From assembly GCA_001464735.1 (NCBI GenBank), contig LNDU01000029.1:5573-69572 (forward strand): a stretch of 64,000 nucleotides of DNA. The letters run 5' to 3'. Every line of letters begins with the position of its first letter. Within the stretch, counting starts at the first letter, position 1. Origin of the DNA: Nitrospira sp. Ga0074138 (lineage in GTDB: Bacteria; Nitrospirota; Nitrospiria; Nitrospirales; Nitrospiraceae). Below, in pieces: positions 50,190 through 62,408 of this stretch. The notes below the pieces were generated by a model. The model saw only the letters and a program-made list of their open reading frames with translations. It did not search any database and was not told the DNA's origin. The position numbers and the translations under genes were made by a program.

Positions 50190-50648
50190 ATGAGGCAAGG
50201 AGAGATCCTCAACCTGCAGTGGCAGGATGTGGATTTCATACGCGGGACGCTCATCGTGATGAAGAGCAAGAACGGCACACGCCGCACGATTCCATTGAAC
50301 AGCACGGTGTTTGCGTTGCTCGCCGCCAAGCAAGCTGCGACAGGCGCATCATCCGGGCCGGTGTTCAAAAGTCCGCTGGGTAATACCCTTCAAGTGCGGT
50401 TCTTGGTGCGAGAGTTTTGTGAGGCAAGGGATCGGGCCGGGATTCCCGATTTCCGTTTTCACGACATACGGCACACGTTTGCCACGCGACTCGTGCAACG
50501 TGGGATCGATTTGTACAAGGTCCAACGTCTCCTCGGTCACAAGACCGGGACTATGACACAGCGCTATGCCCATCATTCGCCTGAGAGTTTGAGGGACGGC
50601 GTGAACGTGCTCGATGCTTGCAAACATGCCACATCTGGCATACCATGA
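50190..50648 (+). pseudogene. Tyrosine recombinase catalytic C-terminal fragment
   Basis: GMRQGEILNL.W.DVD, FHDIRHTFATRL, LLGH and RYAH; the N-terminal domains are absent. Confidence 0.8.
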
Positions 50649-54437: not shown

Positions 54438-54715
54438 AGAGGCCTCCTTGTCTCAGAGGGGCGGGCAAGGCCATCCATGAGACCGCAGGCAGCTGCACGA
54501 GGTGACTAGATTAATTGTCCGCCTTGGCGGAGGTATATGCAATGGGGAATACCCTAGTCAGCTCAATACAGAGCGGCGCCCGTTGATTGTGTATAGGCGG
54601 GGACAGAGAGGCATTCCCAAGATATTGACCTGCGATTGCCGAGTTCCCATAATCTCTTGAAACAACATTGCCCTAGATGGTCCTACTCCCTATGGCTCCC
54701 GAGTAGTAGGCATCT

Positions 54716-54832
54716 ATGACCACCGAAGATGATGCGGCAAGAAACTTCTACGCGTATTGTGATTTCCTTCCTTCGCCAAGCGACCCATTGCATCTTTTCA
54801 TGCTCCTGAAAGATGCTCGCAAGATTGTCTCC
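54716..54832 (+). pseudogene. C-terminal fragment of a GNAT-type toxin
   Basis: EDDAARNFYAYCDFLPSPSDPLHLFMLLKDARK resembles the C-terminus of AtaT/TacT-like toxins. Confidence 0.6.
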
Positions 54833-54924
54833 TGCGCTTCCTCATCACCCGACACCCACAATCGGAAGCACGAGAGTCGGGGAGAGAAGCCCCCGGAGGG
54901 CCGGAGGCTTCCCATAGGAACCGC

Positions 54925-55170
54925 TCAGCGCTTCAGTGTGTGAGCGGTCATCCACTCCTTCGCTTCAAACGCGACATTCATGAGCGCCTCCAGGTCGTTG
55001 AGACCGAATGAAGTGCCATTGCGCCAGGAACCGGTCTGATCCTTGAACGGCCGTGAAAAGGTCGTCGCGAAGAACGGTCCTTTCCCGCTCACATTCTGCC
55101 AGATCGTCGCTTTGATGTTCCCACATCGCAGCGTCGTTGCCGGTCGCTTGGATTGTTGGTTGGTCGCCAT
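54925..55170 (-). CDS. 81-aa putative ssDNA-binding protein, copy C
   Basis: MATNQQSKRPATTLRCGNIKATIWQN...; AGGAGG RBS; downstream hairpin at 54884-54913. Confidence 0.7.
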   Translation of the reverse strand: MATNQQSKRPATTLRCGNIKATIWQNVSGKGPFFATTFSRPFKDQTGSWRNGTSFGLNDLEALMNVAFEAKEWMTAHTLKR

Positions 55171-55371
55171 GGTGTTTCCTCCTTGTGTTGAACTGTAGGT
55201 GACTCTCTCACGGGAGGAGGAGAGGCACCGCACAGGTCACGGAGGAAACAGGAGGCAGAGGCCGGAACCGGCGGGCCGGAGAGGGACACGCAGCGGGAGT
55301 GACAGAACACTGGCGCGAGCGAGGCGCCTCGAAGGTGTAAGCCGGTCGGCCATCGCCGCTGGCGACCAGAA
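55021..55371. repeat. ~350-bp direct repeat (partner at 61179-61528) flanking the S8 protease gene
   Basis: Gene 5' half plus about 200 bp of upstream sequence align between the two sites up to GGCGACCAGAA. Confidence 0.9.
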
Positions 55372-55530
55372 ACAGCCGAAGTCCGAAAAAAGGAGTGGGG
55401 TCAAATAAACTTCGGGGCAGATCTTGTTTGGTACATCACAAACGTTGAGCTGTCCGTCCGATACAGATTGCCTTACCGAGTATGCCGCGTATGACTACCA
55501 CGGAGTGACATACTACACGGTAATTGCTGT

Positions 55531-58500
55531 TCACCGCGCTCTGGCGTCACGCTGTGCAGCAGTAAGCACCTGCACGAGCGCCGGAATATCAGAACGCCTG
55601 ACTGTGGACGGATCTCGCGATATCAGCTGTACGACCTCGCTCAAGCCCGCTTGCTTGACCTCGGTCGTCAGGTACTGACCTACAGAGTCGTCCTGCAGCG
55701 CTTGAATGAGCGCGATGCGCGCTGCGCCAGTCGGGTCGCCGCTACCTGTCAGTGTATTCAAAGCGTGCTCCATCTGCTCAGCCCGACGTTGCGAAGCTCC
55801 TCCGGACTCGATCACCCGAAACTGCGCACCGTCCGACGCCAGACCCCACCCTTCCGTTCCTTGCACCAGAACATCGTAGACGCCGGACTCCAGGCCGCGA
55901 GGCACAACAATGTCGACCGTACAGCTACGCCGATCCGTTCTCGTAACTTGGGCCTGTTTGAGTATACCGTTTCTCGCAAGCGCGACACCTCTGATATCCC
56001 CGCTGACGAGTGCGCAGTCACCTAACTGCAAAGTCGTGCGGGTTGTCTGGGTAGCGGTTCCCGATCCAACGGTGATCTGGACGACAGGCGGCACATCGAG
56101 TGCAATGGTCTGTCGTGGAAACACCACACTAAACGCCGTGACCTGAATTGTGGCGCTCGTACGTCCGGGATCAGCCCGGAACGTCTGTATGTAGCTGCCA
56201 TTGAGCTGGTCTTCGAGCACCCCGCCCGGAGTCAGTCCAGAAACCTGCACGCTGATCTGATCGGTCAAGCCCGGCCCCATATATCCGCCGGATTGATCGC
56301 GTGGCGTGAATACAAGCCTGATACCTCGTCCTCCGCCCGTCATGACCCGAATTGGTGTTGTCCGTTCATCGACCTTGGGCGGAACGTAAGCGGATGTGAC
56401 GGATTCCCTCGTGAAGAGATCACAATCCTCGGTGGTACCTTCTGTCCGGGCGGTCAATACATAATGCCCTGGGAACCGAGTTGACGGGAATATGCCGGCA
56501 TACGTTCCCAGCACCGTGGTTTCCGGAATCGCAACTCCAGGGAATGTCACCCTGGCAATCGGATCCTTATTCAATCGGCGCGTGAGTGCCATGGTCATGC
56601 GTTGTACTTGCGAGATCGGCTCGCCCGCGACCGTAGCGGGAGTCGCGTTGATTTCAGACTGCGTGATGCCGGCTGACGCCAGGACGTTGCCAAGGCTCGC
56701 GATGGGTGCATCCACTTTCGCGATCACGTTGGCACCACTGATCGGCCCGCTGGCCCCTCGTACCTGTGTCCGTACCCGGATGGGTTCGCCGAGATCGAAG
56801 ATGCCATCGGCAGATGGCTCGATAGTCGTGGCTTCAAGAATCTCGGATTCCGTGATGGCCGTCGCAGCAAAACGGATCGGAACCCCTGTCGGATTTTTGA
56901 CCCGCATCGTCCATTTGCCTGCATGCAGCTGATTGGCGCCGACGCGCAGGGGCAGGCTCACCTGGATGACCGTATAAGCTGGAGCACTGATCCGTGTAAT
57001 CGCGTCGCCAAACTGGCCGAGGTTACCATTGTGCAAGACCACCCCTTCAGGTGAGATCAGTTCTAGTGTGGGATCGAATGCCGGATTATCCCAGGTAAGA
57101 ACGAATGTGACGGTCCGGTCCGGTCCAGAGACATTGATGGGAACCTCTCTGACCTGCGAAGGAGGAACAGTATCAACAGGATCAACAATCACTTCGGCAC
57201 TAATCGCATTGGCGAGCGCATTCACAAAGAACTTGTCCAGCTCGAGTGGGGATTGTGTGACATGGAAAAATCCCTGCGCTCCCACATTGCTGAGCGCTTG
57301 CAAGAGTCCAATATCGAGACCCGACAGCCCTTCGCCTCCTTCGGTCCCAAAACCGACCGAGAAGACCTTAACGTTCTCGTTGTTGAAGCGCTGTAGAAAC
57401 GAAGCTTCAGAAGGGTTTCCACCGGCCGTCCTCATGCCATCGGAGAAAAACAGCACGACTTTCCGTCTATCCGTGCTCGTCGGAATGAGATCAAGCGCTC
57501 GTTCCAACGCAGCGCGGATATTAGTGCTTCCGTTGGCCGTCATGGCCCCAACTGCTGCTTTGGCACCAGCAATGTCGCCCGCACCGAAGGACTTCACGGA
57601 ACCCGATCCATCGCTGAAGTCGGTCGACGCAGATCCCGCGAAGCTGACCTCGCCGAGGCGGTCCCCTGCGTCGCGACGGAGCATGTCGATGAAGAGGTTG
57701 GCCGAAACCTGAAGCATTTGGAGCTTCGTCTGCGTGCCTGCGGTCACGGGTACCGACGCACTCATGCTCCCGCTCCGATCCATCACCATGACCACGTCTA
57801 TAATCCGTCCCACCTGAATAGCGAGGAGATTGACGTCGTTGTGTTCGAGCACCGCGTCGCCACTATCGGCGCGAACGAGCAGAAAGACGTCCTCCGAAAT
57901 GAGATCATCGATGGTCGCTGAGGGATTCCCCAGCAGCGCCTGAGCGTCCGCCGCGGAAATGGTCACGGTGCTGGTCCGCGTGGCTTCGGCACCGCCCGCC
58001 AGTGGGGCGAAGGCAGCGGCAGTCGTATCTGTCAATGCGACGTCATTGCCGAGTGCAAAGTCGCGCGAGAGAAACACCTGGTGAGTGAAACCCACGCCGG
58101 TGTCAACACTGCTGGTGTTCGCCACCTTCCAGTTGAACGTGATCGGTGTGCCGAACGCCGCCATTGCCACCCGATCCTGACTTGAAGGCACGAGCTCTGG
58201 CAGCGCGGGATACGGGAAGCCGACCAGGGCGAAGGATTGAGCATTTTCGCGCACGTTGAATCCGATGACGCGTGCCTTCCAGTGCCCGAACTGCGTCGGA
58301 TCATTGGGGAGGTTCACGAACACCTGTTCCACATTATTCAGGTGATCCTTCCCTGTCGCCGCAACCCAGACACCGCCCGCCGCCACCGCGTTCTGCGGAA
58401 CGTAGTCGATCGAGACCGGTCCGACTGCTTGCGGTACCGTTGGACATCCCGGAGGAGCCGTCCCTTGCGCACAGACGTACTGCCAGGTAAATGATGGGTT

Positions 58501-61038
58501 GGTGATCGGCGCAATCGAGGCCTGGACTTGAATCGCCGTGCCAGGCGGCTGGGCATTGTCCGCCAGCGGATTACCAGCCGCATCTAGTGTTGTGTGCCCG
58601 AGCCTCCAGGGATAGAAGATCGTTCCATTCGGTGCGACGAGTTCGAGATCGAGATCATTCACCAGCATCGGGCTCGTCGCCGGATTGAGCGTCGTCGCTT
58701 CAAAGTCATCCCATGCGAGGGTGACGGTGAGTGGGCCGCCCTGATTCACGACAAAGTCATATTCTCTGACAATCCCCTGGGAAATCGAACCTTGAATCAT
58801 CTGGTTCGCCTGCGCACGACCGGAGACCGTGCGGGCGTTCGTGAGCATAGCCGCCGCCGCATTGATGTTGGCGGTCCCCCACCCGGTGGCGTAGTCGGGA
58901 CCTGCCGTGGCGGCAACTTGCCCGAGACCATCGGTGCCGTTGGCCTGATTGGAATCTCCATCCATCTCCGGGCTGTTCACGCCCCGAACGTTCGCCTGCT
59001 GCACATCTGTGGCGGTCTGGATTAACAGCGCCCGTAACAGCGCCGGCAGCGGCGGGTTGGCGTCGAGGGTGGCTCCAATCGGAGCATTGTAGGTGTTTTG
59101 CCACAGCTCAAGCAGCTGAGCGACGCCACCCGTAATCGACGGCGTGGCCATCGACGTCCCGTTGCACGATACGTAGCCGTTCGTGAGATTGGTGCCATTC
59201 GCCACGCACGAACCGTCCCCGTTGGAGCCCGTGGAAATGATACTCGTGCCCAGCGCCAGGAGATCCGGTTTGATACGTCCGTCATAGGCGGGCCCAAGGC
59301 TGCTGCCTGGCGCGAGTGCCACCGCGGCAGCCCCAGCGAGGGAACTTTGATTGCCGACCACGAGGGTATTCTTGTTCTGCTTGGTGAGGGCAAAGTAGCC
59401 TGTTTGGCCGGCGATCGTGGTGGTGGAATTGAGGGTGCCGCCATTGGCTGGCCGCTGGTTGTTCGGAAGTTGGCCGTGATTGCCTGCCGACGCGACCAGC
59501 AGTCGTGGCGGAACCACGGTTCCCCCGCTCGTCGCGCCGCCGCGTATTAAGCTGTCGATGCGGCTATTTTCGGCGTCATAGTCGCCATCGAACGACCACG
59601 ACTGTGAGCGGTTGGCAACATCTAAGGAGTTCGCTTGAATCGCCGTCAGCATGTTCCCGACGTTGTCGAGGTCACCAGACGAAATCAGTCCAGCCTGTGG
59701 CGCTGATCCTCGCCATTGAAAGGCTGTGCCGCCATTGGCCGTGCCGGCCGCGTTGGTGCCATTGCTCAGGCCACCGCTTCCTGCGATCGTGCCGGCGACA
59801 TGCGTACCGTGGCTTCCGACTCCCGCTGCCGCAATCGTGGCAGCCACAGTGAGGTCGGGATGGGCGGCAATGCCTGTGTCATGCACGCCGACGGTGATGC
59901 CCAAGCCCGACGCGCCACCATAGGTAATGGTGTTCATGTTGATGGTTGCATTTTGCAACGCGTTGGAATTGATGACGGCCCGGCTGTTGTCGTTATCCGG
60001 CATCGCCGGCGCTGGGCCAGGATCAATGGACTCCACTTCGTCATAGGCGGCTAAGGTGCGCAGGCGGCTTTCTGGAAGCGTGACCCGGCGCTGCACGTCG
60101 CTGAGGTGATCGAACGACGTGGCTTCGGCGGCTAGAATCGCTTGGATACGGGCCATACTGACATCGGCAAAAAACGTCACCGTTAGGTTCAGCGCTCCCG
60201 GACTCTGGACCACCATGTTCGTGACGACATCGAGCGGCGAGGAGACGGTGTACCGTGCGTAATTTCCAACCAGAATGTTTGGCTCGATCTTATCCTCTGG
60301 GTCCAACGGAATGACGCTGGACACTAACGCGCTCGTCGCCGGATTGAATCGGCGTTCGATCCGGGCCAGGGCGTGGCGTCCAGGGAGATGTTTCAAGAGC
60401 TTGAGCCCTTCGCGCTCAAGTTGCACATTTTCCTTGCAATTGCAGGCCTTGTTGAGCGTGACAATCCCATGCAGCTGTCCCGATGGTGCCGCAGTCAGTC
60501 GTGAAAGCAGGTCAAACTGGAGCGAAGCTGAAGGCCACAGAGCGCCAGAGCGCATGGCGAGTCGCTCTCTGCGGAATAACTCGTCGCGCGCGTCATTGAC
60601 GGGAGTCGTGATCTCAAGAAGGCCTCGGGCATCTTGACTGGCAGGGTCGCGCAGGACAACCCGCCATGAAACCCCCCGCGCCAGATCATCAGGCGACACA
60701 TCGTAGGTCAGTTGCAACGGCGAAGAGCCGGTGACGTGCGCATATGGTGCAACAGGATCAGAAAGTAAGAGCCGTCTGCGCCCTTGCAACTCCATGTGGA
60801 GTTGCGAACTCGAACCGGTCCATGTAGCGACCACCACGATCTTTCCAGTGGCCGACACATTGAACTGTGTGAACGCGACGGACTGCGAGCCTGATACCCA
60901 GAAATTGTTGGACGTGGTGACGGGCTGAGTGGGCACGACTGGAAGCAAGGGCGGCGCCGTGCTACCCGGAGTCAGCGGCGCGCAGGAAGACAGTACAACG
61001 ACAAGGAATGACATGGATAAGAGCCGAAGCCAGTTCAT
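55531..61038 (-). CDS. 1835-aa lipoprotein S8 (subtilisin-like) protease with a vWA domain
   Basis: Lipobox VVLSSC; triad VHDTG / SHGTHVAG / GTSMATP; DRSGS MIDAS and FSDG vWA motifs; GGAGGTGG RBS. Confidence 0.88.
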   Translation of the reverse strand: MNWLRLLSMSFLVVVLSSCAPLTPGSTAPPLLPVVPTQPVTTSNNFWVSGSQSVAFTQFNVSATGKIVVVATWTGSSSQLHMELQGRRRLLLSDPVAPYAHVTGSSPLQLTYDVSPDDLARGVSWRVVLRDPASQDARGLLEITTPVNDARDELFRRERLAMRSGALWPSASLQFDLLSRLTAAPSGQLHGIVTLNKACNCKENVQLEREGLKLLKHLPGRHALARIERRFNPATSALVSSVIPLDPEDKIEPNILVGNYARYTVSSPLDVVTNMVVQSPGALNLTVTFFADVSMARIQAILAAEATSFDHLSDVQRRVTLPESRLRTLAAYDEVESIDPGPAPAMPDNDNSRAVINSNALQNATINMNTITYGGASGLGITVGVHDTGIAAHPDLTVAATIAAAGVGSHGTHVAGTIAGSGGLSNGTNAAGTANGGTAFQWRGSAPQAGLISSGDLDNVGNMLTAIQANSLDVANRSQSWSFDGDYDAENSRIDSLIRGGATSGGTVVPPRLLVASAGNHGQLPNNQRPANGGTLNSTTTIAGQTGYFALTKQNKNTLVVGNQSSLAGAAAVALAPGSSLGPAYDGRIKPDLLALGTSIISTGSNGDGSCVANGTNLTNGYVSCNGTSMATPSITGGVAQLLELWQNTYNAPIGATLDANPPLPALLRALLIQTATDVQQANVRGVNSPEMDGDSNQANGTDGLGQVAATAGPDYATGWGTANINAAAAMLTNARTVSGRAQANQMIQGSISQGIVREYDFVVNQGGPLTVTLAWDDFEATTLNPATSPMLVNDLDLELVAPNGTIFYPWRLGHTTLDAAGNPLADNAQPPGTAIQVQASIAPITNPSFTWQYVCAQGTAPPGCPTVPQAVGPVSIDYVPQNAVAAGGVWVAATGKDHLNNVEQVFVNLPNDPTQFGHWKARVIGFNVRENAQSFALVGFPYPALPELVPSSQDRVAMAAFGTPITFNWKVANTSSVDTGVGFTHQVFLSRDFALGNDVALTDTTAAAFAPLAGGAEATRTSTVTISAADAQALLGNPSATIDDLISEDVFLLVRADSGDAVLEHNDVNLLAIQVGRIIDVVMVMDRSGSMSASVPVTAGTQTKLQMLQVSANLFIDMLRRDAGDRLGEVSFAGSASTDFSDGSGSVKSFGAGDIAGAKAAVGAMTANGSTNIRAALERALDLIPTSTDRRKVVLFFSDGMRTAGGNPSEASFLQRFNNENVKVFSVGFGTEGGEGLSGLDIGLLQALSNVGAQGFFHVTQSPLELDKFFVNALANAISAEVIVDPVDTVPPSQVREVPINVSGPDRTVTFVLTWDNPAFDPTLELISPEGVVLHNGNLGQFGDAITRISAPAYTVIQVSLPLRVGANQLHAGKWTMRVKNPTGVPIRFAATAITESEILEATTIEPSADGIFDLGEPIRVRTQVRGASGPISGANVIAKVDAPIASLGNVLASAGITQSEINATPATVAGEPISQVQRMTMALTRRLNKDPIARVTFPGVAIPETTVLGTYAGIFPSTRFPGHYVLTARTEGTTEDCDLFTRESVTSAYVPPKVDERTTPIRVMTGGGRGIRLVFTPRDQSGGYMGPGLTDQISVQVSGLTPGGVLEDQLNGSYIQTFRADPGRTSATIQVTAFSVVFPRQTIALDVPPVVQITVGSGTATQTTRTTLQLGDCALVSGDIRGVALARNGILKQAQVTRTDRRSCTVDIVVPRGLESGVYDVLVQGTEGWGLASDGAQFRVIESGGASQRRAEQMEHALNTLTGSGDPTGAARIALIQALQDDSVGQYLTTEVKQAGLSEVVQLISRDPSTVRRSDIPALVQVLTAAQRDARAR

Positions 61039-61144
61039 GTCCACCTCCGTTATGGCCGCCTTACTAACACAGCCATCAGGGGTGGTCAATCATAATTCTA
61101 AGTTGATTTACTTACTTAAGTATTAATCATCCTGGAACGCGTAG

Positions 61145-61173
61145 CGGTTCATCCCCACTCGTGCGGGGAACAC
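61145..61173 (-). CRISPR. Solitary type I-E CRISPR repeat (no array, no cas genes in the window)
   Basis: Minus strand GTGTTCCCCGCACGAGTGGGGATGAACCG, 29 bp, matching the canonical I-E pattern GTGTTCCCCGC-n-GCGGGGATAAACCG, with stem CCCCGC-ACGA-GTGGGG. No second repeat about 32 bp away on either side. Confidence 0.8.
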
Positions 61174-61328
61174 CCGGTGCGCCATTCACCGGACTGATCC
61201 TTGAATGGCCGCGAAAAGGTCGTGGCGAAGAACGGTCCGTTCTCGCTGACATTCTGCCAGATCGTCGCCTTGATGTTGCCACATCGCAGCGTGGTCGCCG
61301 GTCGTTTGGATGAGTGGTTGGTCGCCAT
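61149..61328 (-). pseudogene. Copy D of the 81-aa gene, truncated by the CRISPR repeat
   Basis: MATNHSSKRPATTLRCGNIKATIW...FKDQSGEWR|TGCSPHEWG*; the stop lies inside the repeat. Confidence 0.8.
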
Positions 61329-61528
61329 GGTATTTCCTCCTTATGTGAAGTGAAGGTGACTCTCTCACGGAGGAAAGAGAGTCACCGTACAGTTCACAGA
61401 GGAAACAGGAGGCAGAGGCCGGAACCGGCGGACCAAAGAGGGATAAGCAGCGGGAGTGACAGTCCTACTGGCGCCAGCGGTGCGCCTCGCAGGCGTAAGC
61501 CGGTCGGCCCTGCCGGAGGCGACCAGAA
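61179..61528. repeat. Direct repeat partner of 55021-55371, including the hairpin GGTGACTCTCT-N10-AGAGAGTCACC (61355-61386)
   Basis: Direct sequence comparison. Confidence 0.9.
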
Positions 61529-61766
61529 CTATTAAACGAGACAGGGAGGCGTATGAGAGGCCTCGCCTTAAAAGTTCGAAAGAAGGGGTTTTGACAAGTG
61601 CTCGCTATTGCAACGGTTTCCCCATTATCTGCTGCAATATTGAGAGGTTAGTGCCTTCCATTGATTCCATGCGTTCCCGTCTCTTTCCTTCCTTTCCTGC
61701 AGGGTTTTGTCACAAAATTCACCACAGGGTTAGTACGTATAAAAGGTGAGGGAGTGGGTTGGTGTT

Positions 61767-61853
61767 ATGGTTTTCACCGCTCTCTTCAACGCCGCGGCTG
61801 AATTCTGGATAAATCTGAAAAAGACGTATGAACTACGCCTTGCCAACAATTGA
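61767..61853 (+). pseudogene. HigA C-terminal remnant
   Basis: LFNAAAEFWINLKKTYELRLA matches FFNTTAEFWMNLQKTYELRLA of the HigA at 51380-51699. Confidence 0.7.
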
Positions 61854-62135
61854 CCTTCCCCCGATTTCATAGACACCTGTATCCTGCATAAGGAGGAGTG
61901 TAATGAGATGAATGGCATGATCACCAAGCCCCAACGGCGATACACGGAATCCTTAAAGAAGAGGCAGTCCGTTGGTCCGTGAGTCAGGGCAGCCTGTCTC
62001 CCAGGTGGCCCGGGACCATGGCATCGTGGACCATCTGCTCTACCGTTGGCGCGGCTACAGGGGACATCTCACATCGGGGATTTGTGGATAATCAAATCCT
62101 GGCTTGAGACTCCCTTTAGAGCGTTGACCCTCGGG

Positions 62136-62408
62136 TCACTCTGTTGACGAACGTTCTGGCACAATTGTGATCTTAACCCCCAGAAGGCTTGTCCCTATGA
62201 GAAACCCGTCACAAATCACGTCCCGACCCACATATTGCTCTAACTCTACGTCGCCAAAAACGGGGCCGGTCTTTCGACGCAGAATGTAACGACCGTTGTC
62301 GGTCTCCAGGAAGACCGCTTCACGTTCGCTCTTGCTGCCTTGGGCATAGAAGCCACGCGTCACACGACCTCTGACGCCCTTCACTGGAAGAGGCTGTGAT
62401 CCATTCAT
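62136..62408 (-). CDS. Small hypothetical protein (OB-fold-like) coupled to the C25 peptidase
   Basis: Starts 9 bp after the peptidase stop; VRGRV...SKSE...VFLET pattern. Confidence 0.6.
   Translation of the reverse strand: MNGSQPLPVKGVRGRVTRGFYAQGSKSEREAVFLETDNGRYILRRKTGPVFGDVELEQYVGRDVICDGFLIGTSLLGVKITIVPERSSTE

Follow-up and report, generated by a model that had tools for sequence, protein, structure and literature searches.

A solitary type I-E CRISPR repeat fused to a truncated small gene in a cassette island of Nitrospira sp. Ga0074138

The window described here is a stretch of 64,000 nt from contig LNDU01000029.1 of Nitrospira sp. Ga0074138, the genome of which is a metagenome-assembled genome (MAG) of 4.11 Mb in 66 contigs, 94.7% complete. 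It includes an island of repeated modules, each made up of a leader, a small gene for an 81-aa protein and a hairpin, together with cargo genes. About ten copies or fragments of the 81-aa gene occur in the genome, and each is preceded by a conserved leader of ~200 nt and followed by a hairpin. The island also contains a truncated integrase and fragments of IS and HigA genes; genes for conjugation or of phage type were not observed in the window. The similarity of the 152-aa ORF at 50190-50648 (+) to the phage integrase family is confined to the C-terminal catalytic part, and the ORF is a truncated tyrosine recombinase within the module island. Lying between the gene for a 90-aa protein and a module leader are the 3' fragment of a HigA-like antitoxin gene (61746-61853, +) and an HTH_Tnp_1 fragment of an IS3-type transposase (61972-62091, +); at the corresponding place, locus L093 carries an intact IS3-type element (HTH_Tnp_1 and rve). 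The features discussed below are listed in Table 1.

Table 1. Features at and around the solitary repeat (window positions), and comparable lone repeats in other genomes.
Feature	Position or locus	Strand	Remarks
Intact 81-aa paralogue	54925..55170	-	Reference for the truncation point
1835-aa subtilase (Peptidase_S8) and VWA protein	55531..61038	-	Directly downstream of the module leader, hairpin gone
AT-rich upstream region and ribosome-binding site of the protease gene	61039..61122	-	Collinear with L046, L047 and L048
22 nt past the repeat	61123..61144	-	CTACGCGTTCCAGGATGATTAA in gene sense; weak alignment to relatives
Solitary type I-E repeat	61145..61173	-	GTGTTCCCCGCACGAGTGGGGATGAACCG; 7-bp stem with one G-U pair, 4-nt loop ACGA, 8-nt 3' handle ATGAACCG on the transcribed strand
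Chimeric 59-aa ORF	61149..61328	-	Codons 1-50 from the small gene; last 9 codons and stop from CCGG plus repeat
Four filler bases, CCGG in gene sense	61174..61177	-	Between the last family-homologous base and the repeat
Conserved non-coding module leader	61329..61528	-	Hairpin, AAGGAGG ribosome-binding site
Lone I-E repeats beside a 37-nt-repeat array	L010 (G046:C4), L011 (G114:C1), L013 (G127:C5), L014 (G131:C267)
Lone I-E repeats beside a 37-nt-repeat array, continued	L041 (G154:C109), L043 (G246:C8), L044 (G251:C75)

The plus strand of the 29-nt repeat reads CGGTTCATCCCCACTCGTGCGGGGAACAC, and its minus strand is the crRNA sense. A scan of 151 genomes of the same family showed that the sequence GTGTTCCCCGCGCGAGTGGGGATGAACCG is the unit of arrays with a 61-62-bp period in several genomes, which include G009 (19 units), G194, G217 and G243 of the same genus. 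The window unit is identical to this consensus at 28 of 29 positions, the one mismatch (G12 to A) falling on the first position of the loop, while the array of G091 uses the variant ATGTTCCCCACGCGAGTGGGGATGAACCG, which differs from the window unit at three positions (26/29). Immediately upstream of the G009 array are six genes of one orientation, which were assigned by Pfam to Cse2, Cas7e (CT1975), Cas5e, Cas6e, Cas1 and Cas2 (CT1978 type). Because the consensus array adjoins this Pfam-confirmed operon the repeat family is type I-E, and the direction of the operon and array fixes the crRNA sense (GTGTT...AACCG) of the window repeat as the minus strand, the strand that also encodes the small gene and the protease. 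The minus-strand RNA folds with a free energy of -12.5 kcal/mol (Table 1), and the plus-strand RNA, with an interrupted stem, at -9.5 kcal/mol. Around 2.5e-9 matches with at most one mismatch would be expected by chance in 4.1 Mb, and none was found in 100 shuffled sequences. The stretch is a genuine Nitrospira type I-E CRISPR repeat, as the initial annotation had it, and its placing of the repeat on the module strand, where the G-U-containing stem forms, agrees with both the G009 operon direction and the folding. Between 50000 and 64000 no Rfam family matched at E ≤ 1.

The repeat is present as a single copy in the 66 contigs, even with up to 8 mismatches allowed, and a second degenerate repeat or a mini-array was found neither genome-wide at that threshold nor by eye within 61 nt on either side. 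A k-mer spacing scan detected no CRISPR array of any type in the genome, and the 37-nt repeat that is common in relatives is absent here. The sole periodic match of the scan lies outside the window, at C23:17145-17564, where there are ~35 tandem copies of the 12-nt unit CACCTGAGACCN; this is a short-period tandem repeat, probably coding, and no CRISPR array. Searches of the genome for the Cas1 and Cas7e families were negative, as was that for Cas6e, which is weak when taken alone as the E. coli control gave no signal either. When the six I-E Cas proteins of G009 were compared with the genome by tblastn, nothing better than E = 0.03 was returned, and the flanks of the repeat show no similarity to the leader or trailer of the I-E arrays of relatives. 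The copy search, the spacing scan and the Cas searches therefore agree with the earlier description of a repeat with no array and no cas genes, at the level of a 94.7%-complete MAG; I-E cas genes may be present on unbinned contigs.

In the direction of transcription, the repeat forms the end of a chimeric ORF. Codons 1-50 match the 81-aa paralogues, such as the intact copy in Table 1, and homology to the family stops after codon 50 (...GEWR), 4 nt ahead of the repeat. The remaining tail, TGCSPHEWG, is derived from CCGG and the repeat, which begins ~155 nt past the start codon, and the TGA stop sits within the repeat stretch GGGGATGAACCG, so that the gene is indeed cut by the repeat and takes its stop codon from it, as first proposed. 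The four bases CCGG may be filler or a spacer remnant, or may have diverged from AACGG. On the other side of the repeat, the 22 nt that precede the upstream region of the protease gene align weakly with relatives (shuffle p about 0.04-0.06), and are intergenic DNA that has diverged or, alternatively, what is left of a spacer or trailer. A search of genome contigs with these 22 nt plus the last 8 nt of the repeat gave no matches, and the 22-nt flank does not occur among 479 I-E spacers extracted from relatives (~300 distinct, the remainder being duplicates from overlapping loci), so the suggestion that flanking DNA might match a spacer or protospacer found nothing to correspond to it in either set. 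Upstream, the leader is 86% identical to the copy at 55171-55371. The truncation deletes the invariant residues S54, F55, G56, D59, L60, A70, W73 and H77, along with two elements of the modelled fold, strand 4 and the C-terminal helix. With these eight residues, the strand and the helix lost, the chimeric ORF is most likely a dead copy, and the fold model points to a pseudogene as the most likely status of the 59-aa frame.

The 81-aa family has more than 1,200 members, nearly all of them unnamed Nitrospira proteins, with up to 21 copies per genome that are clustered at a spacing of 2-8 kb. The protein has no match in Pfam or PHROG, and no homologues of the gene were found in phages. An AlphaFold model of an intact paralogue (mean pLDDT 88.7) predicts four strands and a C-terminal helix, and none of its neighbours in the PDB had E < 0.09. 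Distant homologues sit on planctomycete plasmids, such as the conjugative plasmid pPSMK1 (NC_017081.1, 11339-11596; L092), in which the homologue lies 1.3 kb upstream of ArdC-like and RadC genes. In relatives, no 81-aa gene was found near I-E loci or near other lone repeats.

Within this gene, codons 47-51 read TGGCGCAACGG (for example, at 55018-55032 of the window), and in many copies they are flanked by the inverted hexamers GGTGCC...GGCACC. Lesions at the same codons are found in other genomes, and comprise a 7-nt duplication, two 1-nt deletions and one truncation (L083, L085, L086 and L087). Two 3'-only fragments in the present genome, at C60:1297-1389 and C29:72422-72565, also begin at codons 47-51. 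The stretch looks like a fragile or recombination-prone site, and this accounts for the position at which the gene is broken but not for the arrival of a repeat. The C29 fragment was considered as the displaced missing half of the truncated gene, as would be left by a circularly permuted element. This was rejected, since the small gene is complete at the corresponding position in L095 and L093, where the same cargo follows (UDG, amidohydrolase, C25-like peptidase and a 90-aa gene), and the fragment is accordingly a remnant of a different, upstream module; its GEWR codons are common to other family members too and are not special to it. At C60:1400-1700, outside the window and ~170 nt upstream of the other 3'-only fragment, a sequence resembling a tRNA (anticodon loop CTCATAA, of Met type, identified by eye only) suggests that another module island abuts a tRNA gene there.

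The arrangement that existed before the repeat can be read from relatives of the protease locus. Three metagenome contigs encode relatives of the protease N-terminus with 95, 94 and 89% amino acid identity. At the nucleotide level, from 61122 downward, the identity over the aligned stretch is ~94% for L046, 93% for L048 and 89% for L047. In L046 and L048, the proteases of which are 94-95% identical to that of the window, the order is a full 81-aa gene, the hairpin GGGAAGCCTCCGGCCCTCCGGGGGCTTCC, a spacer of ~60-85 nt, the AT-rich region and the protease gene. None of the three nearest relatives (L046, L047 and L048) has a CRISPR repeat at this locus. The pairing of small gene and protease predates the repeat, since L046 and L048 have the one without the other, and the repeat therefore did not mark the arrival of the protease. 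The earlier idea of a recombination scar thus stands as far as the joint itself is concerned, which lacks 187-209 bp of the relatives' arrangement, but not in its further claim that the recombination brought in the protease gene.

At this joint, the 187-209 bp are replaced by 33-55 nt, the core of which is exactly one repeat, and the missing stretch comprises the 3' third of the gene (from codon 51), the hairpin and most of the intergenic spacer. Strong DNA homology with the relatives resumes 22 nt past the repeat; a weak collinear similarity (CTnAnGCG..CCAGGA) is seen right after it, and from the alignment homology may resume directly at the repeat. Of 17 positions in TCACCCCCCTCATGCG, at the boundary in the relatives, 13 agree with the reverse complement of the repeat; the likeness does not extend beyond this core and was judged to be due to chance. 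The exact repeat variant had no match in collections of genome contigs and metagenome contigs once records of the present genome were excluded, and none of the 121 sampled congeners has DNA similar to the protease region. On these grounds the replacement is recent and private to one population. The module copy upstream of the protease in L046 points the same way, being 84.5% identical to that of the window, no closer than paralogues, while the protease is at 94%.

Among these 121 congeners, Cas7e was found in all five genomes with I-E arrays and in none of the eight (the present one included) that have only lone I-E units, one or two of them each. As for the initial proviso that the host lineage should not lack I-E systems, such systems occur in the genus (5 of 121 genomes), and the present genome itself lacks I-E cas genes. 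Many lone I-E units sit 25-40 nt from the end of an array with the 37-nt repeat GTAGCGCCCG(CTCGAAAG/TCCTTCGG)GGCGGGCGAGGATTGAAAC (Table 1). In L028 (G009:C5) a complete I-E array abuts the 37-nt-repeat array at that position, so the lone units beside such arrays are leftovers of deleted I-E loci. Nearly always exactly one unit is left beside a 37-nt-repeat array, and the sequence on its far side varies between genomes.

An example with a truncated gene, which could be fully reconstructed, is found in G199 (L045, 3527-3684; G199:C103), where a VWA gene of 229 aa is truncated past about residue 42, only 3 nt short of a lone I-E repeat. The intact pair, a 331-aa regulator-like gene followed by the VWA gene, is present in L105 (G189:C9), and L103 (G217:C4:1-13000) has this pair too, with cas3, the remainder of the I-E operon and the array lying after it. 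The G199 joint is thus the clean trace of an entire I-E locus having been deleted, and the loss of I-E loci in the genus is on record as leaving behind a truncated gene joined to a lone I-E repeat. The window locus resembles it in having a single repeat of the same family, no I-E cas genes and a truncated gene that ends a few bases before the 5' border of the repeat. It differs in that the truncated gene of G199 is the natural neighbor of cas3 in G217, from which the locus deletion can be reconstructed, whereas no relative has a CRISPR locus at the site of the window repeat, which lies inside a cassette island. By analogy, the window repeat is best read as a relic of array DNA.

We therefore favor, with a probability of roughly 0.6, an explanation in which the repeat is an orphan unit left at a deletion or recombination joint in a hypervariable cassette island. 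The identity, uniqueness and orientation of the repeat, the positions of the junctions, the absence of cas genes, the ancestral arrangement and the G199 precedent are matters of observation. The ancestor would have had the leader, an intact 81-aa gene, the hairpin, about 60-85 nt, the protease promoter and the protease, and 187-209 bp of this would have been exchanged for CCGG, one repeat and at most 22 further nt. Two routes can be envisaged, and are equally possible on present data. A CRISPR or CRISPR-cas segment may once have stood between the small gene and the protease and been lost by deletion and repeat-repeat collapse to the last unit, as in G199; this has no direct witness, as no relative has an array or cas genes at the site. 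Alternatively, a patch of array DNA may have been captured during the repair of a break at the fragile codons 47-51; this has no donor, as no array was found with the flanking 22 nt as a spacer. By either route, the small gene would have been inactivated through the loss of strand 4 and the helix; its hairpin is gone, and the protease gene now stands directly behind the module leader. The repeat would have no CRISPR partner in the present host and would do nothing in immunity. What we infer is where the repeat DNA came from, in which order the events took place, and that the repeat lacks a function. Two features count against a relic: the insert ends within 0-4 nt of the 5' border of the repeat and within 0-22 nt of its 3' border, which is tidier than usual for a random deletion, and apart from the one loop base that differs from the consensus there is no visible decay.

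A more unusual origin, in which the repeat is either a Cascade/Cas6e decoy from a module resembling a leading region or a border-exact footprint of 32-33 nt left by breakage and joining by the CRISPR integrase, is improbable taken as a whole. Lone CRISPR repeats are now routinely put forward as RNA anti-CRISPRs, and ArdC-like and RadC surroundings of the kind seen beside the distant homologues of the 81-aa gene on conjugative plasmids, which count towards such a role, are typical of anti-defense leading regions. As a decoy, the repeat would form the 3' end of an RNA that runs from the module leader through the small gene, and the repeat hairpin would bind Cas6e, which we consider unlikely; it is likewise doubtful that, in an I-E Nitrospira newly entered by the island or its parent element, abortive Cascade subcomplexes would weaken interference. 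The intact stem and handle, a sense strand that is the direction of transcription of the module, the lack of cas genes or partial repeats nearby and the I-E systems with this repeat in five of the 121 congeners are all consistent with it. Solitary repeat units that act as RNA anti-CRISPRs (Racr) were described by Camara-Wilpert et al. (2023; PMC10651486), and such units had first been listed by Faure et al. (2019, as cited in PMC10651486). They are intergenic, usually just past a promoter, are carried by viruses and plasmids, and are enriched beside acr genes; those of prophages match the CRISPR subtype of the host in 83% of cases, and Racr units can share a transcript with a protein gene (PMC10651486), a precedent for co-transcription from the module leader.

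The window repeat shares with Racr units its solitary state, with no cas genes and no second repeat, the intact hairpin, the sense orientation within a transcription unit and the mobile-element traits nearby. It differs in not being on a recognized phage or plasmid, and it lies inside an ORF rather than in an intergenic position behind a promoter; a simple scan, which may not suit Nitrospira promoters, found no sigma-70-like promoter in 54700-62200. The host lacks I-E Cas proteins, contrary to the 83% subtype match of prophage units (PMC10651486), the conserved carrier gene is destroyed by the repeat, and the fusion, which the nearest relatives lack, is not conserved beyond a single population. 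In addition, none of the ~300 distinct I-E spacers of relatives matches the genome, giving no sign of I-E targeting of the island, and the consensus repeat has no match in viral contigs. The anti-CRISPR role that was initially proposed for the repeat is therefore not supported, given the missing I-E Cas proteins, the position within an ORF, the restriction to one population and the ruined carrier gene.

The involvement of the CRISPR integrase is quite unlikely. Here, in an I-E ancestor, Cas1-Cas2 would have nicked a repeat border or joined chromosomal DNA to it, and the same or a linked step, quite unlikely again, would also have removed the leader and cas genes. In both of the resolved cases (those for which an uninterrupted relative is available, the window locus and G199) the gene-side junction is 3-4 nt from the 5' border of the repeat, and the filler and repeat together (33 nt at the window locus, 32 nt in G199) measure as much as a spacer in these arrays with a 61-62 bp period. 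No solitary repeat of the relatives retains the conserved leader end GATGAAAGAAGT. However, no more than two cases are resolved, such closeness in both would arise by chance at ~2%, and microhomology (GCA, CGG) could displace the junction as read by several bases. The target-site duplication that spacer integration produces is absent, the 3' boundary is uncertain, and there is no sign that cas genes ever stood near the locus. If true, breakage and joining driven by the integrase would reshape chromosomes and delete the cas locus itself. Should border-exact junctions turn out to be the rule, this would be a hint at a fragility of repeat borders that is connected with the loss of CRISPR-Cas loci.

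Homologous recombination through a spacer was also considered. In work from 2019 attributed to Varble and co-workers, staphylococcal phages are said to provide a case of recombination between a mobile element and a CRISPR array by way of spacer homology. Such an exchange would yield a joint of mobile-element and array DNA like that seen here, but in the window the homology of the gene stops 4 nt short of the repeat. The 32 nt before the repeat have no AAG motif at the offset required for spacer-protospacer recombination, and none of the spacers examined matches the small gene, so this origin was rejected for want of support.

Finally, metagenome assemblies are often disturbed by CRISPR arrays and the genome is a MAG of 66 contigs, but an artefact, with a real array collapsed to one repeat or unrelated contigs joined at a shared repeat, is extremely improbable, as both flanks are collinear with relatives in the same order and the junction is carried by four contigs from independent assemblies and at least three samples (an activated-carbon drinking-water-filter metagenome series and one further sample), which are identical over 574 nt around the repeat and have the same 59-aa chimeric ORF, three of the four having been built with k = 127 or 139, far above 29 nt.

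The favored explanation, an orphan unit left at a joint, places the window repeat among the orphan or solitary CRISPR repeats already known, as a fresh example in a Nitrospira from a drinking-water filter. A relic and a decoy can be separated by sequence, through the uninterrupted ancestral site, the presence of a cognate effector in the host and genus, and the conservation of the fusion, and for the window repeat all three point to a scar. It exemplifies how CRISPR DNA is retained at the joints of rearrangements within variable islands of nitrifying Nitrospira.
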